Part shown: positions 1 through 21,292 of the stretch, piece by piece
Position numbering within the stretch: the first letter of the stretch is position 1
Layout of the letters: each line of letters starts with the position of its first letter
Assembly (NCBI GenBank): GCA_007693965.1
Contig: RECQ01000031.1
Span: 17,771 to 81,770 of the forward strand
Length of the DNA stretch: 64,000 bases
Source: Phycisphaeraceae bacterium
GTDB taxonomy: Bacteria; Planctomycetota; Phycisphaerae; Phycisphaerales; UBA1924
Direction: 5' to 3'
Position numbers and translations under genes: made by a program
The notes under the pieces: model-generated
What the model saw: only the letters and a program-made list of their open reading frames with translations
The model's database searches: none
Told to the model about the DNA's origin: nothing

Positions 1-177
1 CAGGTCATCGAACTAGAGGAGATCTGGGGCGAGGAGATCATCTTCCGTGATGTCCCCGTGATCCGCGAAGACGCGGACGGCGTCAGGACACACCCGCCCC
101 CCACGCCGCCGTCGCAGGACGCCGAACCCGTCTCATCGCTGCGGCGGCGCCAAACTCCAGAGGTGACCGCGCCATGC
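1..177 (+). CDS. C-terminal fragment of the upstream member (P0) of the tandem zinc-ribbon membrane-protein family. Ends ...EIWGEEIIFRDVPVIRED...; its stop overlaps the P1 start (ATGCTGA).
   Basis: Frame-1 translation gives QVIELEEIWGEEIIFRDVPV, matching the conserved C-terminal motif YWGxEIVIRDVPV of the three complete paralogs. Stop TGA at 175-177 overlaps the ATG at 174. Confidence 0.55.
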
Positions 178-1604
178 TGATGTGGCTCATCTCCATCGCG
201 CTCGCCGCCGCCGCGATCGGCGCTGTCCTGCTCGCACTCGGCCTCCGCGGCCGCCGCGTGAACGACCACCCCCACTGCCGGCGCTGCCGCTTCGACCTCT
301 CCGGCCTCGACATCGGCGCAGCAAGCGCGAAATGCCCCGAGTGCGGCGGCGAACTCGCCGGGCGCCGAACGATTCGCATCGGCGCCCGGCGCAGGCGTCC
401 GCGGCTGATCGTGTCCGGCGCCGCCGTGCTGCTGCTTCTTGTCGCGGCCGGCGCGGGGGTCGTCTGGGTCTCGAAATCCAACATCAACTGGACGCCGCAC
501 AAGCCGGCGTGGCTGCTGGAGCATGAGGCGTTCCGCGACGACGGTCTCGACGCCCGCATCGCCGCGATTGAGCTGCTCCGCCGCGCCGATGAGGACGCCC
601 TGAGCGAGTCCCGTCACCGTCGCATCGCCGAGCGGGCCGCGCGTTCGCGCGAGGCGCTGACATCAAACAGGATGTTGTACCTGTGCGACATCATCGAGCA
701 CGCCTGGCGCCGCGGCGTGATCGAGCCGGAGGTGTTGCGGGACATGGCCAAGAACGTGGCGCGCTTCGAGCTCGATCCTCCCCCGCTCGACGCCGGGCCG
801 GATGGGCCGATCCACGTGCCGCTGAATTTCCACTTTCGCTGGAGTGGATCCGCAGTGATCGGCCTGGCGCTCGATTGCGAATTCGCGTCCGCTCGTATCG
901 GTGATCAGCCGCTCCATCGTGTGATGCTGCAAGGAGGAACCGGCGAAGTGACGCGGTTTCCTCGTGAATATTTCTGGAGTCACACACTCCGTCCGATGCC
1001 CAATGACGACCGTGGCGCCCTCCTGACGAGGACCCCGATCGCGCCCGAATCGAGCCTGCCCCTCGGAGAGCACGACATCGACATCAATATTCGTTGGCGG
1101 CTGCGCACGGGCGATCCACGCAGGGGGCACGGACGCCCATTCGAAGAGGCCTCGATGGGCAGTGAGGTCATCGAATGGCATGAACGCCACACCACCCGCG
1201 TGCGCATCATCCCCGAGGAAGAGCTGTCGCCCATCGCCATCGTCGACGATTCGCTCGCGACCGCGGTCGCCGATGCGCTCGCCGTCTCATCGCTCACGAT
1301 CCGCCGTCAGGAGGGCATGCGCGACTACATGCGGCTGTCCATCGACATCCACGACCTCCCCGTCACGATCGCCGGCGACTTCTTCCTCCGCTCCGGCGAG
1401 CGGGTATGGCCGATGCGTTTTCCTCAGATCATCATGCCGGACTATCAACGCACCGGCGTGGACGCGATTCCCGAAGACTTCGACGCGGAGATGGTGGACA
1501 TCATCATCCGGCCGCGGCCGGAGTACGCCCGCTTCGCCGACGGCGTGCGCGAATTCTGGGGACGCGAGATCGTCATCCGCGATGTGCCCGTCGTGCCCGA
1601 GTAG
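174..1604 (+). CDS. Paralog P1 of the tandem family: N-terminal TM helix, cytoplasmic arginine-rich zinc ribbon (HCRRCRFDL...CPECGG), second TM helix, roughly 370-aa ectodomain, C-terminal FWGREIVIRDVPVVPE. Function unknown.
   Basis: 476-aa ORF sharing architecture and conserved blocks (KPAWLLE, IRPxPE, YWGxEIVIRDVPV) with 1629..3041 and 3066..4466. Confidence 0.75.
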   Translation: MLMWLISIALAAAAIGAVLLALGLRGRRVNDHPHCRRCRFDLSGLDIGAASAKCPECGGELAGRRTIRIGARRRRPRLIVSGAAVLLLLVAAGAGVVWVSKSNINWTPHKPAWLLEHEAFRDDGLDARIAAIELLRRADEDALSESRHRRIAERAARSREALTSNRMLYLCDIIEHAWRRGVIEPEVLRDMAKNVARFELDPPPLDAGPDGPIHVPLNFHFRWSGSAVIGLALDCEFASARIGDQPLHRVMLQGGTGEVTRFPREYFWSHTLRPMPNDDRGALLTRTPIAPESSLPLGEHDIDINIRWRLRTGDPRRGHGRPFEEASMGSEVIEWHERHTTRVRIIPEEELSPIAIVDDSLATAVADALAVSSLTIRRQEGMRDYMRLSIDIHDLPVTIAGDFFLRSGERVWPMRFPQIIMPDYQRTGVDAIPEDFDAEMVDIIIRPRPEYARFADGVREFWGREIVIRDVPVVPE

Positions 1605-1628
1605 CGCTGTGGAGAATCGAGGGTCCGC

Positions 1629-3041
1629 ATGACAAGCTTCACCATCACGCTTCTTGTTCTCCTCGCCGCGGCGGGGGCGGTTCTGCTTGTCATCGGCCTC
1701 CGCGGCCGGCGCATCAACGATCACCCCCACTGCCGGCGCTGCCGCTTCGACCTCTCCGGCATCGATGTTAGCGCAACGGACGCGAAGTGCCTCGAGTGCG
1801 GCGCCGGGCTTTCCGGCGCGCGAGCGGTCCGACAAGGCGCCCGCTGCAGGCGTCCGCGGCTGATCGGGGCGGGCGCTACAGCGATGGCCGTCGCGCTCTG
1901 CATCCTCGCCGTGGCGGCGTGGCCGATGGCGGCCGGCTACAACTGGAACACGATCAAGCCCGCGTGGCTGCTCGAAACCGAGACGCGCGAGATCGCGACG
2001 CCCCGCGCCATCGCCGCGGCGGGTGAGCTGGCGGCGCGGGCGATGGCCGGTTCGCTCAACGCCCATCGCCACGGCCGCCTGGCGCAACGCGGCGTCGAGG
2101 CATTCGTCGGCGGCGATCTGCCGGCGCAGCCCGAGCGAAACGCGTGGGGCAACATCATCGAGTCCGCGTGGGAGCGGGAGCTGCTCGAGAACGAATCGCT
2201 CGGGCGCTACATCGATTCACGCATGGTCGTGAGCTTCACGCCACGCAGCCAGATCCGCCGCGGTGATCCGGTTCCGGTCAGTGTCGCAGTCTACACCGCA
2301 GCAGGCGGCGAGAACCGTCTGGGAATGCTGATCGGTGTGCGCATCGATCGCATCTCGCTGGGCGGCGCACCCATTCCTTTGAAACCTGATTGGGGCGATC
2401 CATTCGGAATCATGTCGAAGCCGGCGGAGCACAACACCGGATCGATGATGCGCTGGACGCTGGAAGCCGAACAGGCGCCGGAAGTCGGCGAGCAGAGCTT
2501 CGAAGTCGAATACACGATCGAGATCTTCACCGGCTTCGAAAGGCCCTGGGGAACATCGGGCTATTTCGAGCAGCCCGAGCCCCCCGTAGCCGCGATGAGC
2601 AGACGCGCCGAGTCCCCCGTGCGCATCATCAGTCCCGAAGAGGAGAACCTGGCGATCATCGTGCCCGATGCAGACACGGCGGCGGCGATGCTCGACGCCA
2701 TCCGCATCACGCGGGCCGCCATCACGAAGACGGAAGACGGGCTCATACTCTCGTGCTCGGTCATGATCACGCAACTTCCCCACCCGATCGCAGGGCAGGT
2801 TGTCATGAGAGCCGGCGATCGCGAGTGGCCGCTCGGCGGGCTCGGGGCCCATGCGATCCCCGGGGCGCCGCCGAACTCCAGCCGCGGCTATGGCGTCGGC
2901 GCCGTGGTCGACGAGTTCGATTTAAAGATAGTGGATGTCGTGATCAGGCCCGACCCGGAAGTCGCGCGGCGGAATCTCGGGATGACCAGGTACTGGGGCG
3001 AAGAGATCGTTATTCGGGATGTGCCAATAGTGAACGAGTAG
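1629..3041 (+). CDS. Paralog P2 of the tandem zinc-ribbon membrane-protein family.
   Basis: 470 aa with the same TM / C-x2-C...C-x-E-C-G / TM architecture and conserved C-terminus YWGEEIVIRDVPIVNE. Separated from P1 by a 24-nt spacer. Confidence 0.75.
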   Translation: MTSFTITLLVLLAAAGAVLLVIGLRGRRINDHPHCRRCRFDLSGIDVSATDAKCLECGAGLSGARAVRQGARCRRPRLIGAGATAMAVALCILAVAAWPMAAGYNWNTIKPAWLLETETREIATPRAIAAAGELAARAMAGSLNAHRHGRLAQRGVEAFVGGDLPAQPERNAWGNIIESAWERELLENESLGRYIDSRMVVSFTPRSQIRRGDPVPVSVAVYTAAGGENRLGMLIGVRIDRISLGGAPIPLKPDWGDPFGIMSKPAEHNTGSMMRWTLEAEQAPEVGEQSFEVEYTIEIFTGFERPWGTSGYFEQPEPPVAAMSRRAESPVRIISPEEENLAIIVPDADTAAAMLDAIRITRAAITKTEDGLILSCSVMITQLPHPIAGQVVMRAGDREWPLGGLGAHAIPGAPPNSSRGYGVGAVVDEFDLKIVDVVIRPDPEVARRNLGMTRYWGEEIVIRDVPIVNE

Positions 3042-3065
3042 TGTGATGGAGAATCGAGAGCCCGA

Positions 3066-4466
3066 ATGTCCAGCTTCACCATCATCCTTCTGATTTTTCT
3101 CGCAGTGGCGGGTGTTGTGATGCTCACGCTCGGCCGCGGCGTCCGGCGCGAGAATGCGCATCCGCATTGTCGGCGCTGTCGGTACGACCTCACCGGGCTG
3201 GCGCTGGAGTCTCCCGACGCCAGATGCCCTGAGTGCGGCGCAGGGCTGGGTGGGAAGCGTGCTGTCCGCACCGGTGAACGCCGCAGGCGGCCCTGGATGC
3301 TCGTGACGGGGATTTCCCTGCTCACAATCGCAACAGGCGCGGGCGGCGTTCACGGCTGGCGCATCGCTACATCGCTTGATTGGAAAGTGGCGCTCAAGCC
3401 GGAGTGGCTGCTGGAGATGGACACGAGCAGCACCGACCCCGACGTGTCATACGCGGCGACCGTGGAACTGGCGAAAAGAGCCGTGGAGGGCAGGCTTGGA
3501 GGCAAACGGCTTGCGCGCCTCGGAGAGCAAGGGGTGGATGTGTACGTCCGCGACAATCTCAACACAATGCATGAGTGGGGTAATTTCGTCGAATTGGCCT
3601 GGAAGCAGGGATATCTCGACGATGCCTCGCTCGTGCGCTACCTCGAAACTCGATTTTTCGTAAGCGTCGCGCCAAAGTACGGGATCCGACCCGGCGACCC
3701 GATACCGTTCGTCATCGCCCTTCATACAAGAAAAGGTGGGGAGAATTACGCGGACATCCTTGTCGGACTCCGTCTTGAGAGTGTGACCGTGAACGGGTCT
3801 CCTCTCTCGCTCCTTCGCGACGTCGATGGACCTGTCGGAGTCATGATAAAACCGGGGAACCGATACGAAAGCTCATATACTTACTGGGTTTTTGAAGCGG
3901 ATCCGGCGCTTGAGATTGGCAGACATGACGTTCTCGCCTATTGCACGATCGAGATCTACAGAGGCAGTCCAGGGCCTCTGGACTCGCCCGTGTATGTCCA
4001 GCAGCCTGCTCCGCCCGTAGCTGTCTTGCAAAAGTCGCGCACTTCATACTTAACCTTGCTCTCGTATGAAAAGGAATTTCTGTTCGCAATCGAAGACGAT
4101 GACGAATCCAGCGCGGCGATGGATGAAGCGGTCCGTGTGACACGTGCCTCCATCCGCGAGACAGACGATGGCGTCATGCTCGAATGCTCCCTGACAACAA
4201 TGCGGCTGCCGGTGGACATCTCGGGATATGTGTACTGGAGAGTCGCCGATCGGGAATGGCGACTCGGACCAATCACCTCGAACGCGAGACACTGGACCCC
4301 CAGCTGCCACGAGCTGTCGGTGGTGGTCGATGAGTTTGATGAAGATGTCGTCGACATCGTGATTCGGCCGAATCCCGAGCCCGCAAGGCTGGACTACAGG
4401 ATCAGTCGATACTGGGGGCGCGAGATCGTGATCCGCGACGTCCCCGTCACACACGAATCGCCGTGA
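3066..4466 (+). CDS. Paralog P3 of the tandem zinc-ribbon membrane-protein family.
   Basis: 466 aa with the same architecture (HCRRCRYDL...CPECGAGL) and C-terminus YWGREIVIRDVPVTHESP. Separated from P2 by a 24-nt spacer. Confidence 0.75.
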   Translation: MSSFTIILLIFLAVAGVVMLTLGRGVRRENAHPHCRRCRYDLTGLALESPDARCPECGAGLGGKRAVRTGERRRRPWMLVTGISLLTIATGAGGVHGWRIATSLDWKVALKPEWLLEMDTSSTDPDVSYAATVELAKRAVEGRLGGKRLARLGEQGVDVYVRDNLNTMHEWGNFVELAWKQGYLDDASLVRYLETRFFVSVAPKYGIRPGDPIPFVIALHTRKGGENYADILVGLRLESVTVNGSPLSLLRDVDGPVGVMIKPGNRYESSYTYWVFEADPALEIGRHDVLAYCTIEIYRGSPGPLDSPVYVQQPAPPVAVLQKSRTSYLTLLSYEKEFLFAIEDDDESSAAMDEAVRVTRASIRETDDGVMLECSLTTMRLPVDISGYVYWRVADREWRLGPITSNARHWTPSCHELSVVVDEFDEDVVDIVIRPNPEPARLDYRISRYWGREIVIRDVPVTHESP

Positions 4467-6048: not shown

Positions 6049-6990
6049 ATGATTCCGAAGCCCCCGCCCCGCGAGGGCCAGCTTGGTTTTGTGTTCGTGC
6101 CGCCCTTCCGTGTGCAGGGCGTCTCGATTGCAGGTGAGGCGACCTGCGTGCAGGTCCCGGAGCTGGATATCTGCTTTGACATGGGCTCGTGCCCGCGGGC
6201 GGCCCTGCCCAGCCGCATCGTGGCCATCAGCCACGGCCACATGGACCACGTCGGGGGCCTTGCCTACTTCTGCTCCCAGCGGAAGTTCCAGGGGATGGGG
6301 ACGGCGACGATCGTGTGCGACGAGCGGATCGCCGCGGGGGTGCGCCGGATGATGGCCGGCTTCGTGGAGCTGGAGGGGCAGGTGACGCCCTTCGAGCTGA
6401 TCCCGATGGGCCCGGAACAGGAAATCCAGATCAAAAATTCGATCGTGCTGCGCGCCTTCCACACCGAGCACACCACGCCCTCAAGCGGATATGTAGTGGT
6501 TGAGAAGCGGAGCAAGCTCAAGCCAGAGTATGTCGGCCTGCCGCAGGAGAAGCTGCGCGAGTTGAAAGAACGCGGCGAGGAGATCACGCACATCCTCGAT
6601 GTGCCACTGGTCGCGTATCTTGGAGACACAGCGCCGGGGCCGGTGCTGGTGCGTGAAGACGTGCGCAAGGCGCAGGTGGTGATCTGCGAGTGCACGTTCG
6701 TGGAAGAGGATCACAAGGACCGGGCCCGCATCGGCAAGCACCTGCATCTGGACGACATCGCCGAGTGGCTGCCGCTGCTGGAGAGTGAGGCGCTGGTGCT
6801 GACGCACGTGTCGCGGCGCAGCAATTTGACGCAGGCGCGGCGCCGATTGCACGAGCTAGTCAAGCCTGAAATTGCAGCGCGCGTGTCTTTCCTGATGGAT
6901 CATCGCACCAACCGCGATCGCTATGACAAGCAGGCCATGGCGGCGGAGGCGCGCGAAGCGCAGTTGAACGCCCGCGATGCGGGTGCATGA
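6049..6990 (+). CDS. rnz: Ribonuclease Z (tRNA 3'-processing endonuclease, short form), MBL fold
   Basis: HGHMDHVGG metallo-beta-lactamase motif, about 314 aa, C-terminal LTHVSRR. Start taken at ATG (MIPKPP); the upstream part of the track ORF overlaps the DedA gene on the opposite strand. Confidence 0.8.
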   Translation: MIPKPPPREGQLGFVFVPPFRVQGVSIAGEATCVQVPELDICFDMGSCPRAALPSRIVAISHGHMDHVGGLAYFCSQRKFQGMGTATIVCDERIAAGVRRMMAGFVELEGQVTPFELIPMGPEQEIQIKNSIVLRAFHTEHTTPSSGYVVVEKRSKLKPEYVGLPQEKLRELKERGEEITHILDVPLVAYLGDTAPGPVLVREDVRKAQVVICECTFVEEDHKDRARIGKHLHLDDIAEWLPLLESEALVLTHVSRRSNLTQARRRLHELVKPEIAARVSFLMDHRTNRDRYDKQAMAAEAREAQLNARDAGA

Positions 6991-7249
6991 TGAGGCGTTC
7001 GCAGGGGGCTCCGTGACACGCAAATGCGCAGATTTGCGAGTATGTGCGCACGAACGTGCGCCTACATGGTTGACAGACGTTGCGCGCATTCGTAGCTTCA
7101 TAGTTTGTCGCGGCACGCCCGGTGGGATGTCCGGCGCAGCGCAAGTTCGCAATGCGTCGGCATGAAAACGGTACGACAAGCGGGCGCCGTCGCGATGGTG
7201 TATTTGTTCCCCCTCTCTCACTCAACAACTTTCGCCAAGGCGGGCGATC
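6991..7249 (+). promoter_or_regulatory. dnaA upstream region with clustered TGCGCA/TGCGCG palindromic motifs and a candidate sigma70-like promoter (TTGACA-17nt-TAGCTT around 7068-7096).
   Basis: Six or more TGCGC-core motifs within about 150 bp (gcaaatgcgcagatttgcgag, tgtgcgcacgaacgtgcgcc, gttgcgcgcattc, gcgcaagttcgcaatgcg), directly upstream of dnaA. Confidence 0.3.
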
Positions 7250-8641
7250 ATGGATCGACCGGATCATCTGATCTGGAAAAAGCTGCTTGCGCATGTTCAG
7301 AAGCGCAGTCCGAACCTCTGGCGCCAGTGGTTCGAGGAGATCGAGCCCGTCGCGTTTGATGGGGGCGTCTTCCTGCTCCGCGTGCGCAACACCGTGCAGC
7401 ATCGGTACCTGCAGCGCGATTGCGCCCAGGCCTTCACCGATGCGGCGCAGGAGGCGACGGACAGGCTGGTCGCGGTGCGCTTCCTCGCCCCTGAAGCGGA
7501 GGTGCGCGAATTGGAGGATGACGCAGCGCAGGAGCACGGCAAGAATGGATCCGCCCAACTGATCGAGGCCCGGCCCCGCAACGCCACGCCTCGCATCGGT
7601 CTGCCCTCCGGCGGCGAGCTGATCCTCAACCCCGATTACAACTTCGAGAACTTCGTGATTGGGCCGGGCAACCGCTTCGCGCACGCCGCCGCACTCGCCG
7701 TGGCTGAGAACCCCGGCCTCACCTACAACCCGATGTTCATCTACGGCGGCGTGGGGCTGGGCAAGACCCACCTGCTGCAGGCGGTGTGCGCCCGCATCCT
7801 CGAACGCAATCCTGACACGCAGATCACCTACATCTCCTGCGAAGATTTCATCACCCAGTTCATGGACGCCGTGCAGGTGGGGCAGATGGCGGGCTTCCGT
7901 CACCACTTCCGCGATGTCGACCTGCTGGTGATCGACGACATCCACTTCCTCGCCAACCGCGATCGCACCCAGGAAGAGTTCTTCCACACCTTCAACAGCC
8001 TGCACCAGGCCCGCCGGCAGATCATCCTCTCCTCCGATGCAGCGCCGGATGAAATCCCCCACCTTGAGGGACGACTGGTCAGCCGCTTCAAGTGGGGGCT
8101 GGTCGCCGACATCCAGGCGCCCGACTACGAGACCCGCGTCGCCATCGTGAAGCAGAAGGCCAAGGTCCGCGGCGTCGAGCTGCCCAGCGAGGTGGCCGAA
8201 CTGATCGCCGAACGCTGCCACGCCAACATCCGCGAGCTCGAGGGCGCCCTCACCAAGATCCAGATGCAGGCCAACCTGGATGAGTCCCCCATCAGCATGG
8301 CCCTGGCCCGGACTGCCATGGGCGTCGAGACCAACATGCACGCCAACAAGGCCACCATCGAGGTGATCGTCAACGCCGTGACCGAGTACTACGACGTGAC
8401 GCTCTCCAACCTCCAGTCCAAGCGCCGCCAGCGCTCCATCGCCCAGCCGCGGCAGGTGTGCATGTACTTCGCGCGTCGGTTCACCCGCTACTCCCTCGAG
8501 GAGATCGGCGGCTACTTCGGAGGCCGGGACCACACGACCGTCCTCCACGCCGTCCGCACCGTGCAGTCCTACCTGGAGCAGGACCCCGAATTCGCCAGGC
8601 GAGTCGGCCAGATCGAGGCCACCATCCTCAGCAACGCCTGA
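7250..8641 (+). CDS. dnaA: Chromosomal replication initiator protein DnaA
   Basis: AAA+ Walker A GGVGLGKTHLL, sensor motifs, and C-terminal DNA-binding domain (RRQRSIAQPRQVCMYFARRFT..GGRDHTTVLHA). 463 aa. Confidence 0.95.
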   Translation: MDRPDHLIWKKLLAHVQKRSPNLWRQWFEEIEPVAFDGGVFLLRVRNTVQHRYLQRDCAQAFTDAAQEATDRLVAVRFLAPEAEVRELEDDAAQEHGKNGSAQLIEARPRNATPRIGLPSGGELILNPDYNFENFVIGPGNRFAHAAALAVAENPGLTYNPMFIYGGVGLGKTHLLQAVCARILERNPDTQITYISCEDFITQFMDAVQVGQMAGFRHHFRDVDLLVIDDIHFLANRDRTQEEFFHTFNSLHQARRQIILSSDAAPDEIPHLEGRLVSRFKWGLVADIQAPDYETRVAIVKQKAKVRGVELPSEVAELIAERCHANIRELEGALTKIQMQANLDESPISMALARTAMGVETNMHANKATIEVIVNAVTEYYDVTLSNLQSKRRQRSIAQPRQVCMYFARRFTRYSLEEIGGYFGGRDHTTVLHAVRTVQSYLEQDPEFARRVGQIEATILSNA

Positions 8642-8739
8642 GCCTGAGCCACGCCCCCCACTCCCGATCCACCACCACACCCCCACCACACCCCCACCAC
8701 ACGCTCCCGCTGCGCCCCGATTCTGCGTGTCGGCATGTA

Positions 8740-8748
8740 TGTGGATAA
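8740..8748 (-). promoter_or_regulatory. Consensus DnaA box (TTATCCACA on the minus strand)
   Basis: Exact 9/9 match tgtggataa; a weaker ggtggacag box follows at 8751..8759. Confidence 0.6.
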
Positions 8749-9091
8749 GCGGTGGACAGAACGGCGCGGCCGTCCGGGGCGGGTCTGCCGATTGGTGTGG
8801 GAAGTGTGTGAGTAATCCCGGGTGGACCCGGGGTCCGATCCGGCGCCATCGCGACGCGCCAACCGCCCGCCAGGTTCTCCACAGGCGCCGACGGGTGTAA
8901 ACCATTGTCAGTGCGACAATTGCGGCGAAAAAGCGAAGTACTTCACAGACCGACAGGCCTTACTACTGCGAAGATGAGAATCTCTTTCTCTCCCTGTAGA
9001 GAGAAGAAGCGGACGACTCTTGGGGTATTCTGCCGGTCTCTCTACGTTGGGCGCCCTAGATGGATCACCTGAAGCAGGGTTTTCCATCTTC

Positions 9092-9153: not shown

Positions 9154-10011
9154 TCACTGTTGACAAGACTTGCACCACACCGTCGTCCGCTGGGCAATCG
9201 ACCCGGAGCGGAGCGCCCTGCCGCAGGACCGGCACGGCTCCCCGCCCCGGCCGTACACGGCGTGCTTGAGCTGGAACCAGCCTGACTCCCCCCGGCTGTC
9301 GACGTAGTCCCGCAGCGTCGAGCCGCCCGCTTCAATCGCGCGCCCGAGCGTGGCTCGGATCGCAGCGCACAGGGCCGCCACATCGCGCACATCGCACGCG
9401 AGGCGATCGGGAGCGATCCGGGCCAGGTGCAGCGCCTCGTCGGCGTAGATGTTCCCCAGGCCTGCCAGGACGGACTGGTCGAGCAGGGCCGCCTTGATGG
9501 GTCGGCGGGCACGCTCCAGCCGCGGCCCGAGCTGGTCCGGCGAGATCTCGGCGGCGTCGGGGCCGAGGAGCGACCAGCGCGTGTCGGTCAGCTCGGCGTA
9601 GCTTGCGAAGGTCCACACGCCCCCGAAGCGGCGCGGATCGCGGAAGAGCAGCCGCCCGTCTGACTGCGGGCGGTCGGCGCGGCCGTTGCTCCCGGAGGCT
9701 GCGGGCGTCGCCAGGCGCCATTCGAGGTGGATGTGGTCCGCCCGGGCCGGGGCGGCGCCGCGGGGAAGATGCAGGAGCTGTCCGGACATGCCGAGGTGGA
9801 CGCACAACGTCCGCCCGTCCGCCGCGACGATGGCGAGCTGCTTGCCGCGGCGTTCGAGACGGTCGACGACGGCGCCCCGGAGCAGATGCCGCCCGGTTCG
9901 TCCGCCCTCGATGATGTCGGTGCGGCGGCGGGTCACGGAGACCACGGCTCGCCCGGGCAGGACATCCAGGAGCGATCGGCGCACGGTTTCGACCTCTGGA
10001 AGCTCTGGCAC
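9154..10011 (-). CDS. mutM: Formamidopyrimidine-DNA glycosylase (Fpg/MutM)
   Basis: N-terminal MPELPEVE catalytic Pro2/Glu3 motif and C-terminal zinc finger CRSCGRAL...CKSCQ. 285 aa. Confidence 0.9.
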   Translation of the reverse strand: MPELPEVETVRRSLLDVLPGRAVVSVTRRRTDIIEGGRTGRHLLRGAVVDRLERRGKQLAIVAADGRTLCVHLGMSGQLLHLPRGAAPARADHIHLEWRLATPAASGSNGRADRPQSDGRLLFRDPRRFGGVWTFASYAELTDTRWSLLGPDAAEISPDQLGPRLERARRPIKAALLDQSVLAGLGNIYADEALHLARIAPDRLACDVRDVAALCAAIRATLGRAIEAGGSTLRDYVDSRGESGWFQLKHAVYGRGGEPCRSCGRALRSGSIAQRTTVWCKSCQQ

Positions 10012-10125
10012 GGCGCCGATGGTATCCGTGCGGAACTGCCCGCCGCGCGGCGGGTATCATCCGATGCACGCCGAATCAGAGTCAGCACGCGAAGGGCGCC
10101 CCGCCGCCACTGGAGTTCACTCGAT

Positions 10126-11204
<1,079 letters not shown>

Positions 11205-11208
<4 letters not shown>

Positions 11209-11573
11209 TGCGCTTGCCGGCGAACCGGGAATGGACGTTGGTGTGTGCGGCGCTCGCAGCGGCGGTTGTCGGCGCCGGTGTGTACATGATCGAAGTGGTG
11301 CAATTGATCGGTGTGTATCAGCGCCATCCCTGGTTTATTCCCTGGTTTCTTCCACCTATGGATGGCTTTGATCCTGTTCTTGTCCTGTGCGGGCCTGCGC
11401 TTCTTGGAATGGGTCTCGTCACACTCGCGCATTCGCATCGACGTGCATCGCGGCGGCGCGACAAGCTATGTGTCGAGTGCGCGTATCCGGAAACAGGTCT
11501 TCATGTCGGTGTGTGTCCCGAATGCGGCCACGAGAAAGAGCTGGATCCGATTTGTCCGCGGCTTCGAGTCTGA
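11205..11573 (+). CDS. Small membrane protein with C-terminal C-x2-C...C-P-E-C-G zinc ribbon (hypothetical), translationally coupled to moxR
   Basis: 122-aa ORF whose GTG/ATG start overlaps the moxR stop. Two predicted TM helices, then KLCVECAYPETGLHVGVCPECGHE. Shares the CPECG ribbon signature with the tandem family at 1..4466. Confidence 0.5.
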
Positions 11574-11685
11574 CTGAGCGCACTGAACCGACGCCCTTCG
11601 GAATCGCCGGTGAACATACTGCTCTGTGTTGACGAAGGAGTTGAAGCCGCACCCTTTCCCGCCGCCCCTATCATCCCGGGAGTCC

Positions 11686-12699
11686 ATGTCCGACCCGTCC
11701 TCGACCATTCCGACCTCCCCCGCTCCCGGCGCCGAGGCTGATGCGACGCTGTATCTGCATCCGCAGACGCTGGCGCGGCTGGGGTCGTTCGAGATGCGGG
11801 CCAAGCACATCGTCGAGGGGGTGATGAGCGGGCAGCATCGGTCGCCCTACCAGGGCTTCAGCGTCGAGTTCGCCCAGCACCGGCCCTACGTGGCCGGCGA
11901 CGACATCCGGCATCTGGACTGGAAGGTCTACGGGCGCTCGGACAAGCTGCACCTCAAGCAGTATCAGCAGGAGACGAACCTGGACCTGATGATCCTGGTG
12001 GATTCATCGGGGTCGATGGGGTTCGGGTCGCGGCTCTTCAGCGACGCCTCGGGGCACGGCGAGAAGAAGGGGCCGCGGGGGCAGGCGGAGTGGACCAAGT
12101 TCGATCACGCGACGGCGCTGGCGGCGGCGTTCAGCTACATGGCGCTGCGGCAGGGCGACCGGGCGGGTCTCGCGGTGTATGCGGATGAGATTCTCGCGAT
12201 GACGCCGCGGTCCAGCAGGCAGGGGCAGTGGCGCCAGATCGTCGGGGCGTTGTCGACGCATCCGGTGGACCGGCCGACGGACATGGGGCGCGTGATCGAT
12301 CAGATTCTGGCGAAGCTGAACAACCGGTGCCTGCTGGTGATCATCAGCGATTTCTTTGAGGATCCCGCTGCGATCCGCTCGGCGCTGGCGCGGTGCCGGC
12401 ATCGTCGGCACGATGTGATCGTGTGCCAGGTGGTGGATCGGCGCGAGGCGGAGTTTGATTTCAAGGATGCGACCCCCTTCGACGGCCTGGAGGGCGAGGC
12501 CCGGATCCGCATTGATCCGCGGGCCATTCGCAAGGACTATCTGAAGGCGTTCAAGGATCATCAGGCGGCGCTGCGGAAGATCGTGCGCAGCTTCGGGTTC
12601 GACGACATGGTGGTGAACACGCACGACTGGCTCGGCCCGCCTCTGGCGGCGTTCGTGGCTCGTCGCAACGCGCGCATCAAGCGGAGCAAGATGGGTTGA
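11686..12699 (+). CDS. DUF58 protein (MoxR-associated vWA-like protein)
   Basis: DLMILVDSSGSMGFGS metal-ion-dependent adhesion site motif. Conserved position after MoxR, as in the MoxR-DUF58-Bat clusters. Confidence 0.8.
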   Translation: MSDPSSTIPTSPAPGAEADATLYLHPQTLARLGSFEMRAKHIVEGVMSGQHRSPYQGFSVEFAQHRPYVAGDDIRHLDWKVYGRSDKLHLKQYQQETNLDLMILVDSSGSMGFGSRLFSDASGHGEKKGPRGQAEWTKFDHATALAAAFSYMALRQGDRAGLAVYADEILAMTPRSSRQGQWRQIVGALSTHPVDRPTDMGRVIDQILAKLNNRCLLVIISDFFEDPAAIRSALARCRHRRHDVIVCQVVDRREAEFDFKDATPFDGLEGEARIRIDPRAIRKDYLKAFKDHQAALRKIVRSFGFDDMVVNTHDWLGPPLAAFVARRNARIKRSKMG

Positions 12700-12763
12700 A
12701 GCAGGCATCAGGCATCAGGCACTGGGCATCGGGGCTCTGGCGCGCGGCGTCGGAGGTGTCGCT

Positions 12764-15049
12764 GTGACGCTTCTCAACCTTGGTCTCGGGCTGGCGGGGG
12801 CGGCGTGCATCGCGATCCCGATCATCATTCACCTGCTCTTCCGGCGCAAGCGCAAGCCCGTCATGTGGGGCGCGATGCGCTTCCTGCTGGAGGCGTACCG
12901 GCGCCAGCGCCGACGCCTGACGCTGGAGCAGCTTCTTCTGCTGGCGACGCGATGCATGGTGATTCTGCTGCTGGCTCTGGCGCTTGGGCGTCCGGTGCTG
13001 GAGAGCGCAGGAGCGCTCGGCATGGGCGGATCGCGGCAGGTGTACATCGTCATTGACAACAGTCTTGCATCGAGCGCTCGCACCGAGGGCGGCGAGAGCG
13101 CTCTGGACCGGCACAAGCGTTCGGCGGCGGAGATCATCAGCGCGCTTGGTTCGTCGGACCGGGTGGGACTGATCACGCTGGGTTCGCCCGCGGCGGACCT
13201 GGTCGTGCCCGCTTCGAGCGATCACGGCGCGGTGCGATCGATGATTGAGGAGCTGGATCCGACCGATGCGGGCGCCGACACGCTGGGCGCATTCGAACGG
13301 CTGCGCAGCGAGCTGGAGCGCGAGGACACGCGCAGCGGGACCGTGCTGGTCGCGATGCTGAGCGATTTTCTGCTCGGCTCCGCGGACACGGCCTCTCCAC
13401 TGCCGCGGATTTTCGAGAACACCGACCATGTGCAGTTCCTGGCGAAGCGACCGGTGGAGTCGGGGCCGGGGAACGTGCAGGTCGTCTCGGTCGAGCCGTT
13501 GCGGCCGGTGGTCTTCACCGGCGCTGTGGGGCTGGACGGGCCGACATCGGAAGTGGTGCGCGTGCGTCTTCGCCGGACGGGTCCGATCGTGGCGGAGTCG
13601 GGCGTGACGACGGTGCGATTGCGCGTGGCGGCGGAGACGGAGTCGGGCGACTCGGCCTTCGGGCCCGGGGCGGCGCAGACCGTGGTGCGCTGGTCGCCGG
13701 GGCAGTCTGAGGCGACGGCGGCGGTGCAGGTGGATCTGAGCGCCGCGGGGCGCGCCATCGACTCCGGCGCCGCGGCGTTGATCGCGGAGATTGATCGTGA
13801 CGCGATCGACGGCGACAACGCATACCGGCGTCCGGTGGCGCTGCGGAACGTGCTTGACATCGGTGTGATTGCGCGTCGGCGCTTCGGCCCGGCGCCTCGG
13901 ATCGACCGGCTGGACGCGGCGGACTGGTTGCGCCTGGCGCTGCGTCCGACGGCGATTTCTCCCATCGAGGTGACGGACATCGAGCCGGCGTCGATCGATG
14001 CGCCCAGCCTGGCGCGCCTGGACGCGGCGATGCTCACGCGGCCGGACCTGGTTGACGATGATGGGTGGCTTCGTCTGCGCCGCTTCGTCGAGAATGGCGG
14101 GCTGCTGATGGTCTTCCCCCCCGCCGAGCCGAACGTGCATCTGTGGGGCGACGCGATGCAGGAGCATCTCGGCCTGTCGCTGCGCATCGCGCGGGAGGCG
14201 ACGGCGCACGAGCCGGCGCTGTCGTTGTCGGGCGAGGCGCCGGCGACGGACCTGCTGGCGCCGATTCGTGATGAGTTGTCGGATCTGGCGCCTCCGGTGG
14301 GCGTGTTTCGCACGCTTGCGATCGAGGAAGCGGGCGCCGGGATGGAGACGCTGCTGCTCCTCTCCGACGGATCGCCGTGGATCGTGGCGGGGTCGCCGAT
14401 GGTGGAGGACGAAACGGAAGCCGAAGCGCTGCGGGACGAGCGCGGCCTGGTGGTGTATTTCTCCTCAGCGCCGACGTTGTCGTGGACGGAGCTTCCGGCC
14501 AAGCCGCTGATGGTGCCGCTGACGCACGAGCTGACGCGCCAGGGCGTGGGCCGGGCGCATGGATCGTGGTCTTCGCGGGCGGGGGCCGCGGCGTCGGCGC
14601 CGGCGCGGACTGTTGAGCTTCGGGGTTTGGATGGTCGCGCGGGCGACGCGTCTCACGCGGTCGACGAGCGCGGGCGCACGACAGAGCCACTGCGCCGGGC
14701 CGGGCTGTTTCACGCGGTTGATGCGCGCCGGATGGGTCGCGGCTTCGTGGCGGTGAATGCGGACATCGAGGCGGGCCGGACTGATGCGCAGTCGCCGCAG
14801 GCCGTGCAGGGCTGGCTGGCGGCGAGCGGGCTGGGCACGCCGATGTGGATCGATGGCGATGGTCCTCGCGGCGCTGGAACGGAGATTGCGCTGGCCGGCG
14901 AGCAGGCGCGGTCGCCTGTGAGTCTGCCGCTGCTGATCGCAGCCCTGATCTTCGCAGTGATCGAGTTGATCATGGCCCGTTTCTTCAGTCATGCGTTCCG
15001 CGAGGAACGCGGCGTCGGGCGCAGGGGCGCGGCGGGAGGCGCCGCATGA
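12764..15049 (+). CDS. BatA-like aerotolerance-operon protein: N-terminal double-TM domain, vWA domain, C-terminal TM
   Basis: N-terminal LLNLGLGLAGAACIAIPIIIHLLFRRKRKP...LLLLATRCMVILLLALALGRP matches the BatA N-terminal domain. VYIVIDNSLASS vWA motif. GTG start. Confidence 0.7.
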   Translation: MTLLNLGLGLAGAACIAIPIIIHLLFRRKRKPVMWGAMRFLLEAYRRQRRRLTLEQLLLLATRCMVILLLALALGRPVLESAGALGMGGSRQVYIVIDNSLASSARTEGGESALDRHKRSAAEIISALGSSDRVGLITLGSPAADLVVPASSDHGAVRSMIEELDPTDAGADTLGAFERLRSELEREDTRSGTVLVAMLSDFLLGSADTASPLPRIFENTDHVQFLAKRPVESGPGNVQVVSVEPLRPVVFTGAVGLDGPTSEVVRVRLRRTGPIVAESGVTTVRLRVAAETESGDSAFGPGAAQTVVRWSPGQSEATAAVQVDLSAAGRAIDSGAAALIAEIDRDAIDGDNAYRRPVALRNVLDIGVIARRRFGPAPRIDRLDAADWLRLALRPTAISPIEVTDIEPASIDAPSLARLDAAMLTRPDLVDDDGWLRLRRFVENGGLLMVFPPAEPNVHLWGDAMQEHLGLSLRIAREATAHEPALSLSGEAPATDLLAPIRDELSDLAPPVGVFRTLAIEEAGAGMETLLLLSDGSPWIVAGSPMVEDETEAEALRDERGLVVYFSSAPTLSWTELPAKPLMVPLTHELTRQGVGRAHGSWSSRAGAAASAPARTVELRGLDGRAGDASHAVDERGRTTEPLRRAGLFHAVDARRMGRGFVAVNADIEAGRTDAQSPQAVQGWLAASGLGTPMWIDGDGPRGAGTEIALAGEQARSPVSLPLLIAALIFAVIELIMARFFSHAFREERGVGRRGAAGGAA

Positions 15050-17415
15050 ATGAAATGCTTTCCTGGCTGCTTGACCTGAATATGCTCGACCTGGGCGCGG
15101 AGAATGTGCGCTTCGGTTTCGAGCGGCCGCTGCCGTTATGGGGATGGTTCCTTGTGGTGCAGGCGGCGGTGGCGCTGGCGGCGTGGAGCTACTGGCGTCT
15201 GTCCGGATCGCGGTTCATGCGCGGGGCGCTGGCGGGTGTGCGCGCGGCGCTGCTGCTGCTCCTGGTGGCGCTGATCTGCGGGCCGCAACTGGTGCAGAGC
15301 GACGAGACGGTCGAGCGCGACTGGGTGGTCGCGCTGGTGGACCGCTCGCTCTCGATGACGATCGAGGATGTGGACATCGGGAACGGGCGGATTTCGCGCG
15401 AGGAGCAGTTGCGCCGGTCTTTGCAGCGCTCGTGGCCGACGTGGGAAAGCCTCGCTGAGCAGCGCCGCGTGGTGTGGCTCGGCTTTGACGCCGGCGCCTA
15501 CGACCTGCCCGTCGACATGGATGAACAGACCGGCGAAGGAATGACGCTGCGCCTGGACGAGCCGCAGGGACGGCGCACGAACATCGGGGCGGCGATGGAC
15601 CAGGCCCTGCGCCGGGCCGCGGCGCGGCCGCTGTCCGGCGTGGTGATCTTCTCCGACGGCAAGTCGCTGGATGAGCCCTCACGCGCGGCGATGCGCCGTC
15701 TGAGGGCAGAGCGCATTCCCGTGCACGTTGTGCCGCTGGGCAGTGAGATTCCCGTGGGCGACCTTGCGATTCGCAGGGCGGAGGGGCCCGGCATGGCGTT
15801 CGTCGACGACACGGCGCCGGTGACGGTCGAGATCGAGCGCGTCGGCGCCCCCGAGGGCCTCGGCGGCACGCTTCGGCTCCTGGACAAGGCGACGGGGCGC
15901 GTGCTGGATGAGCGTCCGATTGATCCTGACGAGGAAACGCAGACCATCACGCTCACGCACCGGCCCGAAGAGCCCGGCGATGCGACGTGGGTCGTTGAGA
16001 TTCTGCCCGACGGACCCGACCTGATCGCGGGCAACAACCGCGCCGAGGTGCCGATCGAGTTGATCGACCGGCCGCTGCGGATTCTGTACGTGGATGGGTA
16101 TCCGCGCTGGGAGCAGCGCTTCCTGCGCAATCTTTTCCTGCGCGAGGGGTCGATCCTGTCGAGCAACCTGCTTCTGGCGCCGAATCGCAGGCCGAGCCAG
16201 GAGGGCGACGTCGAGATCGACGCCCTGCCCGATTCGTCGGGCGCGTGGGGCCAGTACGACCTGGTCGTGATCGGCGACGCGAGTCCGGAGGTCTTTTCGC
16301 GAAAGCAGCTCGAAGATCTGCGCGAGCATGTGTCGGTGCGCGGCGGGGGTCTGCTGTGGATCGGCGGCGAAGGCTTGACGCCCGAGGCGTGGTGGGGAAC
16401 GCCGCTGGCGGATCTGCTTCCCTTTACACGCGACGGACTGCGCTCCGGCGGAGCGACCACGCCGTCGATCGTGCGCCCCACGGCGCTGGCGGAGCGCTTC
16501 GGCGTGATGCGCCTCAGTGATTCACCGGAAGAGCCGTGGCCCGCGGAGCTCTCCAGCCCCGACACGGGCTGGTCAATGCTGCGCTGGCGCCAGCCGATCG
16601 ATCCGGCCGGGCTCAAGCCGACGGCGGAGGTGTTGGCGCTGGCGACGCCGGCGCATGCCTGGGGCAGACCCGACAGCGCCGACGCGACGCCTCTGGTGAT
16701 GTCGATGCGCTACGGCGCCGGGCGCATCATCTACGTCGGAACCGATGAGATCTGGCGCTGGCGCTATGGTCGGGGCGAGGTGTACTTCGAACGCTTCTGG
16801 CTCCAGCTCGTGCGGCTGCTTGGGCGCGAGAGCCTGGCCCGGACCGGGCGCGACGCCGCCCTCACCATCGAGCCCCGCCGCGCTGTGGTCGAACCCACAG
16901 GCGCCGGCGTTCGCATCGCCATCGAGCTGTTGGACCAGTCGCTGGTCGAGATCGGGCTGAGCTCCATTATGGTGCGGCTGGAGCGCCGACGACTGCCCGG
17001 CGAAGCCGAGGACCCAGCCCCCGTCGAACTCACGCTCCGCCCCGAAGATCGCGCCGGGCGCCTCTTCTCCGGCACATGGATTCCCACAGAGCCCGGCGAG
17101 TGGCAGGTGAGGGCGGCGGAATCCGCTCTGGCTGGCTACGGGCTGGAAGAGCGGATCACCGTTTCGCTCCCGGACGACGAACTCCGAAGCCCAGAGACTG
17201 ATCATGCCCTTCTCGCCCGACTGGCAGAAGATTCTGGTGGCAAGGTGTTCGACCCGGGCGATCTCTCGCAACTGCCGGCGGAGCTGCCCAATCGGCGGGT
17301 GCGTCTGTTGAGCGAGACTGCGGAATCATTATGGGACACGCCACTGGCGTTGATCCTGGTGGTGATGCTGCTCACGATGGAATGGGTGGGCCGCAGGCTG
17401 GTGCGCCTGGTCTGA
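15046..17415 (+). CDS. BatB-like vWA-domain membrane protein (aerotolerance-cluster family), with a class-I glutamine-amidotransferase-like region
   Basis: Two N-terminal TM helices, VVALVDRSLSMTIEDV vWA motif, C-terminal TM. Start ATG overlaps the preceding stop (ATGA). Confidence 0.7.
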   Translation: MNEMLSWLLDLNMLDLGAENVRFGFERPLPLWGWFLVVQAAVALAAWSYWRLSGSRFMRGALAGVRAALLLLLVALICGPQLVQSDETVERDWVVALVDRSLSMTIEDVDIGNGRISREEQLRRSLQRSWPTWESLAEQRRVVWLGFDAGAYDLPVDMDEQTGEGMTLRLDEPQGRRTNIGAAMDQALRRAAARPLSGVVIFSDGKSLDEPSRAAMRRLRAERIPVHVVPLGSEIPVGDLAIRRAEGPGMAFVDDTAPVTVEIERVGAPEGLGGTLRLLDKATGRVLDERPIDPDEETQTITLTHRPEEPGDATWVVEILPDGPDLIAGNNRAEVPIELIDRPLRILYVDGYPRWEQRFLRNLFLREGSILSSNLLLAPNRRPSQEGDVEIDALPDSSGAWGQYDLVVIGDASPEVFSRKQLEDLREHVSVRGGGLLWIGGEGLTPEAWWGTPLADLLPFTRDGLRSGGATTPSIVRPTALAERFGVMRLSDSPEEPWPAELSSPDTGWSMLRWRQPIDPAGLKPTAEVLALATPAHAWGRPDSADATPLVMSMRYGAGRIIYVGTDEIWRWRYGRGEVYFERFWLQLVRLLGRESLARTGRDAALTIEPRRAVVEPTGAGVRIAIELLDQSLVEIGLSSIMVRLERRRLPGEAEDPAPVELTLRPEDRAGRLFSGTWIPTEPGEWQVRAAESALAGYGLEERITVSLPDDELRSPETDHALLARLAEDSGGKVFDPGDLSQLPAELPNRRVRLLSETAESLWDTPLALILVVMLLTMEWVGRRLVRLV

Positions 17416-20500: not shown

Positions 20501-21292
20501 CCGGTCGCGAACATGTTGGGCCGGGCGGCGGACGAGCAGTCGGACGCGATCGTGGCCCTTCGCGCCGATCCCGTCGGCGTCGAAGCCGCACGGAACCGGG
20601 AGAACGCCAGCCTGGAGCGCCTTCGCGAAGCCAAGGCGCTCGCCGAGGAGCTGGAGCGCGAGCTGGCCCGTCAGCAGATGGATCGTGAGCGGCGCGAGCT
20701 GCGCCGGCTGTATCAGGAGATGCTCGAGAGGCAGACAGACGTGCGCGAAGAGACAGGGCCTTATGCGGAAGCGGACCGGCTCACCCGCCGCGACCAGGCG
20801 GCGTTGCGGGCGCTGGGCGAGCGGCAGGTTCAGATTCGCAAATCGCTCAGCGAGGCGCAGGAGCGCACGCAGGAGCTGCTGGAGGCGCGCGTCTTTGACT
20901 TTGCGCATCGCAGGCTGGATCGCCTGACCGGCGCCGCCGGAGAAGCGCTGCGGGCGGGCGAGCCGTCGCCGGCGTTGCCGGCGCAGCGCGAGTCGATCGC
21001 GCTGCTGCAGGGGCTGGTCGATGCGCTGCAGGAATCGGCGCAGCGCGAGAGCGAGTTTGACGACGGTGGTGGCGGCGGCGAGGGCGAGCCGGGCGAGGGC
21101 GAGCCGCAACTCATCCCGCCACTGGCCGAGCTGCGGCTGCTCAGGCAGATCCAGGCGGATGTCCTCCTCCGCACCCGCGAAATGGCCGAATCGCGCGATC
21201 GCGTGGGCGCTGAGGAAGTCGACGAACTGGGTTCGATGCAGCGCGAGCTGCACGAGATCGGTCAGGAGTTGATCAGGTCTATGATGCAGTAG
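17591..21292 (+). CDS. Large (1233-aa) membrane protein with N-terminal TM helices and a very long E/R/A/Q-rich coiled-coil region. Hypothetical; co-operonic with the Bat/MoxR cluster.
   Basis: Long ORF with strong periodicity and charged coiled-coil-like composition across 19300-21250. Shadow ORFs on the opposite strand were rejected. Confidence 0.65.
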   Translation: MTDQSHHNNPDGAVSGAGIAKVRTSLTRLAARARTILLAQRLLLGVAALLAALMFVGMVDFLFRFPIGLRLFQLAAGLAILSYAFWKFVLPAWRFRPSATAVALRLEKRHPEWEGYLASGLEFASGGDASRETADSPEMARYLSTRVVDEAARRWKPGDLGRVYRLEALQRAGLLAALAIVVIAAIGWLSPNLAMISAARTLTPWSGAEWPKRTMVVDATDVEVHPLGAAAPLRAALVRSHRTADRTDVAVRYQLIRDGRVAQSRRALLTWQEREIDVAGGGSGALFERLVDADADVLEYRFETIDDQTPWRRIKLTPAPEVKTARVRISPPEYASALRDAQAEDAEAGFGPLERDMGPGRDERAVAPRSLAGSRVELDIELNKPTPLSPDDSSWVVATLGPDAATAGVDIEALDGEEGAASRWRLRWTLDDSVRLTVSLVDEYGIVSVDDSVYRFEAVQDQPPTVTVTAPDSDRSVLATAVVDVEAEARDDVALDSVWIERQRSRPAGAAGRDPSGPGGAMEPIEDPVEIARVDGASQTLARARTQLDLSTLGVRPGDEVLIQALATDIYATETVLRDPSKSMVRRLRIISEADLIEEIRSELNAVRQSAIRLDEQQQQIRDNIRRDGADAQARRGQAQVSERIARQRDSVDRLSQRAETNALDDDRLESLLDEARRLLDEAGRRSEEAARMIDEAAREQEHRAGEPGADGADGEAGAADGDSDGVDESEERSEVEQAADRAQRDVQRELESLIELLDRGEDAWVMRRQLENILEEQRELREQTAQAGAETAGRSVGELNEQERSALEDIVQRQQELAERQRELAEELRDRAAELREDDPAAAAGLAEAARRAEENQTDQTMQQAAGEAQENRMSQAGQSQEQAIEDLEEMLEGLDRAEQAREEALRRVLASIIESIEALIRRQETELETLQAAEDRGAFDGVDVGMIRLNQNTLGVQDTARATDRALAPVANMLGRAADEQSDAIVALRADPVGVEAARNRENASLERLREAKALAEELERELARQQMDRERRELRRLYQEMLERQTDVREETGPYAEADRLTRRDQAALRALGERQVQIRKSLSEAQERTQELLEARVFDFAHRRLDRLTGAAGEALRAGEPSPALPAQRESIALLQGLVDALQESAQRESEFDDGGGGGEGEPGEGEPQLIPPLAELRLLRQIQADVLLRTREMAESRDRVGAEEVDELGSMQRELHEIGQELIRSMMQ

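Follow-up and report, generated by a model that had tools for sequence, protein, structure and literature searches.

A tandem array of paralogous membrane proteins with a predicted zinc ribbon between two transmembrane helices in a Phycisphaeraceae bacterium

Layout of the array

The stretch analysed, referred to here as the window, comprises 64,000 nucleotides (nt) of contig RECQ01000031.1 (positions 17,771 to 81,770, forward strand) in the metagenome-assembled genome (MAG) of a Phycisphaeraceae bacterium (GCA_007693965.1). Its positions 1-4466 carry on the plus strand three complete co-directional paralogous genes for proteins of 476, 470 and 466 amino acids (aa), preceded by the 3' end of a fourth gene. 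The genes are named P0 to P3 in the order of transcription. They encode membrane proteins of a large, undescribed family in which a loop with four conserved cysteines, predicted to form a zinc ribbon, is held between two membrane helices. The features of the array are as follows (GC3, G+C content at third codon positions).

1..180, plus strand: P0, last 59 codons and stop codon (TGA 178-180) of the upstream paralog, frame 1, containing EEIWGEEIIFRDVPV
174..1604, plus strand: P1, 476 aa, NCBI EA376_02375, GC3 0.83
276..347, plus strand: predicted zinc-ribbon core of P1, CRRCRFDLSGLDIGAASAKCPECG, with Cys35, 38, 54 and 57
1605..1628, plus strand: spacer between P1 and P2, 24 nt, CGCTGTGGAGAATCGAGGGTCCGC
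1629..3041, plus strand: P2, 470 aa, architecture as in P1
1731-1802, plus strand: predicted ribbon core of P2, CRRCRFDLSGIDVSATDAKCLECG
3042..3065, plus strand: spacer between P2 and P3, 24 nt, TGTGATGGAGAATCGAGAGCCCGA
3066..4466, plus strand: P3, 466 aa, NCBI EA376_02385, architecture as in P1, final gene of the array
3168-3239, plus strand: predicted ribbon core of P3, CRRCRYDLTGLALESPDARCPECG

The presence of at least four tandem copies, proposed in a first-pass annotation made from the letters of the sequence, was confirmed. P1, P2 and P3 are complete and matched the family profile with E about 1e-183 to 1e-190, which excludes chance. The P0 fragment matched the C-terminal end of the profile (positions 434-461) with 22.4 bits; it consists of the C-terminal strand of the family, IWGEEIIFRDVPV, and a 40-aa tail rich in proline and arginine. 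On the DNA level, direct repeats spaced 1437-1455 nt confirmed the tandem unit. All motifs quoted in the first-pass annotation were located in the paralog alignment: HPHCRRCR[FY]DL, C[PL]ECG, KP[AE]WLLE, VD[IV][IV]IRPxPE and [FY]WG[RE]EIVIRDVP[VI]. The two spacers, described there as exactly 24 nt, measured 24 nt each and have the core GGAGAATCGAG in common. The overlap of P0 and P1 had to be revised from ATGA to a 7-nt ATGCTGA, with the ATG of P1 at 174 and the TGA of P0 at 178-180.

P1 and P3 are identical to the entries EA376_02375 and EA376_02385 of a Phycisphaeraceae MAG, both annotated as 'hypothetical protein'. The GC3 of the array genes ranged from 0.69 to 0.83, a native codon composition. 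An extension of the array upstream of the window was sought in the JGI metagenomes, by one scan with a 60-mer and another based on P1, neither of which gave a match. Exact-protein look-ups for the upstream DNA returned nothing for P1, and P3 was present in only one 3.2-kb Logan contig. Scans of the window for Rfam families and transfer RNAs were empty and no ribosomal RNA was present; sigma-70-like promoters were not found in the window, and terminator-like matches did not rise above the background anywhere meaningful.

Architecture, conservation and distribution of the family

AlphaFold2 models of P1 were obtained from 9 sequences, with a predicted local distance difference test score (pLDDT) of 77, and from 131 sequences, with a pLDDT of 87.8 and a predicted template modelling score (pTM) of 0.77. 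In the latter model the N-terminal module reached a pLDDT of 92-98 and the ribbon loop, with short strands, 94-96. The succession of a first transmembrane (TM) helix, an arginine-rich loop with a four-cysteine (C4) ribbon, a second TM helix and a large outer domain had been read from the sequence, and both the model and the distribution of hydrophobicity and charge agreed with it. Structure prediction divided the outer part into a HEAT-like domain and two immunoglobulin-like (Ig-like) beta-sandwiches. The predicted parts of P1, all on the plus strand, are listed below.

177-248: first TM helix, aa 2-25
249-398: cytoplasmic beta/coil ribbon loop with C35-x2-C38 and C54-x2-C57, aa 26-75
399-476: second TM helix, aa 76-101
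507-758: five-helix HEAT-like domain, aa 112-195
759-1211: beta-sandwich 1, Ig-like, aa 196-346
1233-1589: beta-sandwich 2, Ig-like, aa 354-472

Only two hydrophobic segments occur, one on each side of the ribbon. The loop contains on average 12.5 lysine and arginine residues versus 5.5 aspartate and glutamate residues (mean of 141 members), the N-terminal tail is virtually absent and the ectodomain is acidic. Based on this charge distribution and the positive-inside rule, the ribbon would be situated on the cytoplasmic face of the membrane and the C-terminal part of ~370 residues in the periplasm. The loop presents the two CxxC knuckles of the C4 zinc ribbon superfold, conserved family-wide, and is predicted to be a zinc ribbon. 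The family assembles familiar folds in an unusual way, with the predicted zinc ribbon clamped by a membrane helix on each side. In some members a single N-terminal module is followed by a second complete ectodomain or by an extra beta-sandwich 2 (P0009, P0060 and P0097 with 789-838 aa; P0013, P0023, P0085 and P0114 with 589-612 aa). The outer part is therefore modular, and the family has expanded by internal duplication as well as by tandem genes.

Conservation was evaluated on 141 family representatives with pairwise identities below 50%, among which the cytoplasmic loop was more conserved than any other part. Cys35, 38, 54 and 57 as well as Glu56 were invariant, and G23, R25, G26, H32, P33, D41, L42, G44, G58, G70 and R72 were conserved in more than 90%. 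The consensus of the loop reads G-x-R-G-R-R-x-x-D-H-P-x-C-R-x-C-x-F-D-L-x-G ... C-P-E-C-G ... R-x-G-x-R-x-x-R. Conservation extended to the juxtamembrane KPxWxL and to E133, R137, Q159 and W166 of the helical domain. Beta-sandwich 1 had the highest entropy and the most insertions and deletions. P1 and its ortholog P0003 have lost the family-conserved ectodomain residues Q159, W166, W170, G171, R203 and R223, which suggests a functional divergence of this paralog.

Among the window paralogs, identity decreased from 43-53% in the N-terminal module to 16-36% in beta-sandwich 1. This drop, together with the entropy of the family alignment, supports the first-pass view that divergence is greatest in the middle of the protein. 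The assumption of a recent tandem duplication did not hold: the paralogs are overall 29-43% identical, the ortholog of P1 from another sample is 58% identical, and the pairwise synonymous divergence (dS) was about 1 or more, thus saturated, in nearly all regions and pairs. Judged from this divergence, the duplication is old. A diversifying, hypervariable ectodomain had also been suggested. The ratio of nonsynonymous to synonymous divergence (dN/dS), calculated pairwise and per domain, gave no sign of positive selection; the crude values were below 1 in every domain, but with saturated synonymous sites they have no power to test for diversifying selection.

The size of the family became apparent with an exhaustive HMMER search of 1.84 billion representatives. 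It yielded 6715 clusters at E<=1e-3, of which 4254 remained with a cut-off of E<=1e-10 and 2373 with E<=1e-30. Among the top 150 matches, almost all were full-length proteins of 430-530 aa. In comparison, word-index homolog searches (8, 81 and 13 matches) badly under-reported the family, and the names of their matches were uninformative. A scan seeded by motif and covering 185,579 species, each represented by a single genome, detected 38 loci, 37 of them in MAGs labelled as Phycisphaerae, Phycisphaerales, Tepidisphaerales or Planctomycetota. The single exception was a 2.3-kb contig binned as Acidobacteria. In the genome scan the family is thus almost confined to Phycisphaerae/Planctomycetota.

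The first-pass annotation had not recognised a named family, and neither did the databases: P1-P3 gave no significant family in Pfam and NCBIfam and no significant assignment against PDB sequences, and the matches in PADLOC and PHROGs were at chance level (E>=0.019). Literature searches on the family or its motif retrieved nothing relevant. For curators, these thousands of clusters without a Pfam, NCBIfam or PDB entry and without a paper in the literature searched define a new domain family, composed of a TM-ribbon-TM module and an ectodomain with a helical part and a double sandwich.

Tandem arrays of two to six copies were present at six other loci: L004 has six copies, L011 four, and L010, L024 and L037 two each, while L032 contains fragments in addition to at least two intact copies. 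In a neighbour-joining tree the window paralogs grouped together, as did the copies within L004, L010 and L032; the expansions are therefore lineage-specific. The largest array seen, L004 (3519-13234, plus strand) in a Planctomycetota MAG (KLAP200), consists of six consecutive genes for proteins of 479-633 aa with gaps of -16 to 165 nt. Several of these copies match the profile only to about position 357, their C-terminal domain being replaced or highly divergent. In L020, an RNase P RNA (class A; 9428-9894, plus strand) lies directly 5' of broken pieces of a family gene (155 and 166 aa), which may be a decayed copy.

Affinities of the ribbon and possible role of the proteins

The N-terminal modules of 30 members had sub-threshold matches to several ribbon families of Pfam: DZR (21 of 30), Zn_ribbon_8 (20), Zn_ribbon_3 (18) and Zn_Ribbon_1 (14). 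L37e (PF01907) was matched by nine of the 30 at E<=1, with a best E of 0.0032 and all scores below the gathering score; P1-P3 did not match it. A profile of the 30 modules, searched against the PDB, retrieved dozens of eL37 chains, the best a eukaryotic eL37 with E=1.6e-5 and 27.8 bits over ~60 residues. Designed C2H2 fingers (Aart, consensus zinc finger) ranked higher and were dismissed as an artefact of the repeated CPECG motif, and the next natural ribbon was ~1000-fold worse than eL37. The pattern G-[KR]-R-x-[ND]-x-H-x-L-C-x-R-C-G ... C-x2-C-G ... R-x4-G-x-[KR]-x-[KR]-R-R is common to the N-terminal modules and eL37, hhalign assigned the pair a probability of 86.8% (P=4e-6), and none of 2000 shuffles with the cysteines held fixed reached the real score. 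The arginine-rich C4 ribbon of eL37 resembles that predicted for the array proteins in its pattern H-x2-C-x-R-C-G ... C-x2-C-G and in the basic G-x-[KR]-x-[KR]-R-R stretch behind it. However, eL37 is a free archaeal and eukaryotic ribosomal protein of ~90 aa buried in rRNA, whereas the array ribbon forms a loop within a bacterial membrane protein of 470 aa, and the two cysteine pairs are separated by 11 residues in yeast eL37 versus 13-15 in the window paralogs. The resemblance is best taken as a statistically supported lead and not as membership, because convergence is easy among short ribbons and membrane topology explains the basic flanks equally well.

Two characterised systems have a comparable organisation. 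ZitP of Caulobacter crescentus (CC_2215) is a bitopic regulator of polarity and pili; its cytoplasmic ribbon binds PopZ and its periplasmic DUF3426 domain recruits CpaM (PMC5182063). It resembles the array proteins as an inner-membrane protein with a cytoplasmic C4 ribbon (CXXC-X19-CXXC in ZitP) and a periplasmic domain. Yet the ribbon of ZitP is located at a free N-terminus before a single TM helix, whereas the array ribbon is clamped by two TM helices, with a hydrophobic segment on either flank. ZitP combines zinc_ribbon_5 and DUF3426, while the outer part of the array family, with its HEAT-like domain and two Ig-like sandwiches, is much larger. ZitP also belongs to a different phylum, and the array family has no link to PopZ. 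In GltJ of the Myxococcus xanthus gliding machinery, a cytoplasmic zinc ribbon binds MglB and serves as a switch of protein-protein interaction (PMC11135422). This ribbon is N-terminal, and a long linker connects it to a GYF domain. The array family has no such linker, only a few residues separating the ribbon from each TM helix, and a GYF domain was absent from the matches of P1-P3 and from the families listed for the 30 N-terminal modules (the 25 most frequent of 88). The family belongs to neither group, and its likeness to both would be at most one of functional logic. Other periplasmic sandwiches of the Ig-like or cupredoxin-like type (PCuAC, DUF4352, chaperone-usher chaperones, RbmA) have no sequence similarity to the array ectodomain; compared to PCuAC-type sandwiches it has no copper-binding motif, and the matches covered single domains with low template modelling scores (TM-scores).

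We tentatively propose, at somewhat less than an even chance, that the array proteins are transmembrane adaptors or receptors. The helical hairpin would anchor each protein in the cytoplasmic membrane and expose the arginine-rich C4 ribbon loop of 50 residues to the cytoplasm. The nearly invariant ribbon may dock to one conserved cytoplasmic partner, a protein or an RNA. In the periplasm or envelope, the variable domains, and beta-sandwich 1 in particular, may bind different ligands, so that each paralog would link its own outer partner or cue to an inner partner common to all. The notion of one partner inside and many outside is derived from the contrast between the conserved ribbon and the variable outer domains, and the mechanism is inferred by the logic of ZitP and GltJ. 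An adaptor or receptor fits best because the cytoplasmic knob hardly varies, the outer domain is both variable and modular, the paralogs are many and an enzyme motif is lacking.

Several observations weigh against this proposal. The recurrent neighbours of the family genes are all housekeeping genes, so that the context may be plain synteny, and no sigma factor, kinase or GTPase was encountered among the recurrent neighbour clusters or ~40 annotated flanking proteins of ~40 loci. The ribbon lies a few residues from both helices, and its basic residues could serve topology only, following the positive-inside rule. The domains that define ZitP were not recovered either: zinc_ribbon_5 (PF13719/PF13717) was neither among the matches of P1-P3 at E<=1 nor among the 25 families most frequent for the 30 N-terminal modules, and the ectodomains of P1-P3 had no Pfam match to DUF3426. 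Cytoplasmic partner, zinc binding, topology and ligand are all predicted.

The proteins might instead be structural components of the envelope, the ectodomain acting as periplasmic scaffold, spacer or adhesin and the hairpin with its ribbon as a mere anchor or oligomerisation device without a signalling partner. Standalone family genes among housekeeping genes, with no regulatory neighbour, would be consistent with such a role, as would the bead-like repetition of ectodomain units in some members and the fold matches to chaperone-usher, matrix (RbmA) and pilin-like Ig folds. These matches are generic, however, with TM-scores < 0.2, and no part of the protein is better conserved than the anchor loop; an invariant glutamate and near-invariant histidine, proline, aspartate and leucine in addition to the cysteines exceed the needs of an anchor. 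We consider a structural role somewhat unlikely. A membrane tether for RNA or ribosomes, in which the arginine-rich ribbon binds rRNA or ribosomes in the manner of eL37, would account for the profile, hhalign and shuffle statistics described above and for the family gene adjoining a 16S rRNA gene in five loci. But the generic ribbon models of Pfam match more members than L37e, the ribbon is pressed against the membrane, and the 16S rRNA gene is convergent, an adjacency which may be plain synteny. With the ease of convergence among short ribbons and the alternative explanation of the basic residues by the positive-inside rule, the tether has a small chance of being correct.

Regulation and conflict were considered as well. 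Zinc-containing anti-sigma factors (ZAS) of class I, such as RsrA, RslA and ChrR, possess a helical domain with an H-x3-C-x2-C motif and bind a sigma factor of the extracytoplasmic function (ECF) type encoded adjacently. The array family has in common with them a predicted cytoplasmic zinc site of histidine and Cys-x2-Cys and, with the membrane-bound members, an extracytoplasmic domain, a variable one in the array proteins; a zinc site sequestering an ECF sigma factor until a periplasmic signal arrives is conceivable on these grounds. ECF systems are abundant in Planctomycetota (PMC7826278). The anti-sigma-like role, raised already in the first-pass annotation, did not find support: both AlphaFold2 models have a beta/coil loop of ~50 aa in place of a helical domain, the motif is H32-x2-C35-x2-C38, two TM helices are present and not one, zf-HC2 and RskA were absent from the matches of P1-P3 and the families listed for the 30 N-terminal modules, and no sigma factor gene was found among the recurrent neighbour clusters or the ~40 annotated flanking proteins. 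This role appears highly improbable. Slightly better, yet still very unlikely, is a surface family engaged in conflict, by variation of a phage receptor, superinfection exclusion or defence. Independent lineage-specific tandem expansions, the extracytoplasmic position of the most variable domain and a weak similarity, of the Ig-like type, to tail and baseplate proteins of phages would point in this direction. The viral fold matches are generic, though, and against it stand the missing PADLOC and PHROG matches, the native composition of the genes, dN/dS values below 1 and a stable housekeeping neighbourhood (dnaA, 16S, phoU, mfd) in place of an island.

Sediments, soda lakes, wastewater and marine systems all harbour abundant Phycisphaerae, whose cell biology is little characterised; for instance, they are not known to use FtsZ for division. 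For this class, a zinc knob that is nearly invariant on the cytoplasmic side, combined with an outer domain that is modular and expanding, likely marks a lineage-specific envelope or signalling function. A further-reaching and rather unlikely possibility is that the hairpin-clamped ribbon represents a new transmembrane output module across the Phycisphaerae, either connecting thousands of receptors to one cytoplasmic partner or, as a true relative of eL37, tethering ribosomes or rRNA to the membrane in a planctomycete lineage. The latter would be an unusual case of a bacterial membrane protein that has recruited a ribosomal-protein-like ribbon. The partner of the ribbon offers a concrete experimental handle, and what the ribbon binds is a testable question.

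Genomic neighbourhood and other carriers of the ribbon

The gene next to P3 in the window is a convergent gatC, 57 nt from the end of the array. Beyond it follow a VTT/DedA gene, a gene for a metallo-beta-lactamase (MBL) fold protein, dnaA, fpg and a moxR-DUF58-BatA operon. Across the family, co-directional mfd-phoU was located directly upstream in eight loci, 13-87 nt from the family gene, with a phoU that passes the cut-off of TIGR02135. Directly downstream, five loci have an isolated 16S rRNA gene in convergent orientation, unaccompanied by a 23S gene, which results in a block mfd-phoU-gene-16S. The 16S rRNA genes are listed here.

L007, 2331-3752, minus strand: 16S rRNA gene
L015, 11645-13134, minus strand: 16S rRNA gene
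L018, 3631-5121, minus strand: 16S rRNA gene
L024, 8679-10164, minus strand: 16S rRNA gene
L031, 11926-13415, minus strand: 16S rRNA gene

A dnaA gene was found within ~10 kb of the family gene in five loci, the window, L015, L016, L022 and L024. Further recurrent neighbours were mcsA/mcsB, L28, a DegT-family aminotransferase, Rrf2, MutL, Asd and a class II (D/K/N-type) aminoacyl-tRNA synthetase. The picture was the same in JGI contigs for which Pfam annotation was precomputed, and spot checks of neighbours that do not recur revealed no sigma factor, kinase or GTPase. The context is an ancestral chromosomal address, mfd-phoU-gene-16S near the origin, with no clear functional partner. The link to PhoU is only a lead, and the block itself looks like conserved synteny. 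In the window, dnaA (7250-8641, plus strand) lies 2.8 kb 3' of the array, and the cumulative GC skew has its minimum near 10-12 kb and turns upwards near 12 kb; the array is probably close to the replication origin. Long open reading frames (ORFs) on the minus strand at 6860-8905, 10117-11073 and 12677-14209, opposite to dnaA, moxR and the BatA-like gene, were rejected as genes; they are typical shadow ORFs of high-GC DNA, a few of which were picked by the GC3-based caller.

A C-x2-C ribbon of the CPECG type recurs outside of the array, in a small ORF of the moxR operon.

11205..11573, plus strand: ORF of 122 aa flanked by moxR and the DUF58 gene, outside the array, CVECAYPETGLHVGVCPECG

The first-pass annotation had connected this ORF to the array by its ribbon signature. 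The signature C-x2-C-x11-CPECG is indeed present, along with hydrophobic segments and a basic stretch, but the similarity to the family is weak: the ORF aligned to the TM1-ribbon part of the profile with only 11.6 bits. It appears to encode a membrane-proximal ribbon of the same type as in the array, the likeness being limited to the ribbon type. Its GC3 is 0.59, compared to about 0.8 in the neighbouring genes. The operon (9727-15049, plus strand) comprises MoxR (AAA_3), this small TM/zinc-ribbon ORF, DUF58 and a BatA/VWA gene, and the GTG of the candidate small ORF overlaps the moxR stop codon. Downstream of the BatA-like gene, ORFs of 856 aa (14845-17415, plus strand) and 1233 aa (17591-21292, plus strand) had no Pfam match at E<=1e-5 and may be further components of a Bat-like operon. 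Ribbons of the pattern CxxC-x-[YH]-x-L-x-G...CPECG were also found in other architectures, in L003 (13294-13851, minus strand, 185 aa) and L016 (3803-4687, plus strand, 294 aa), which suggests that the ribbon is a reusable module in Phycisphaerae.

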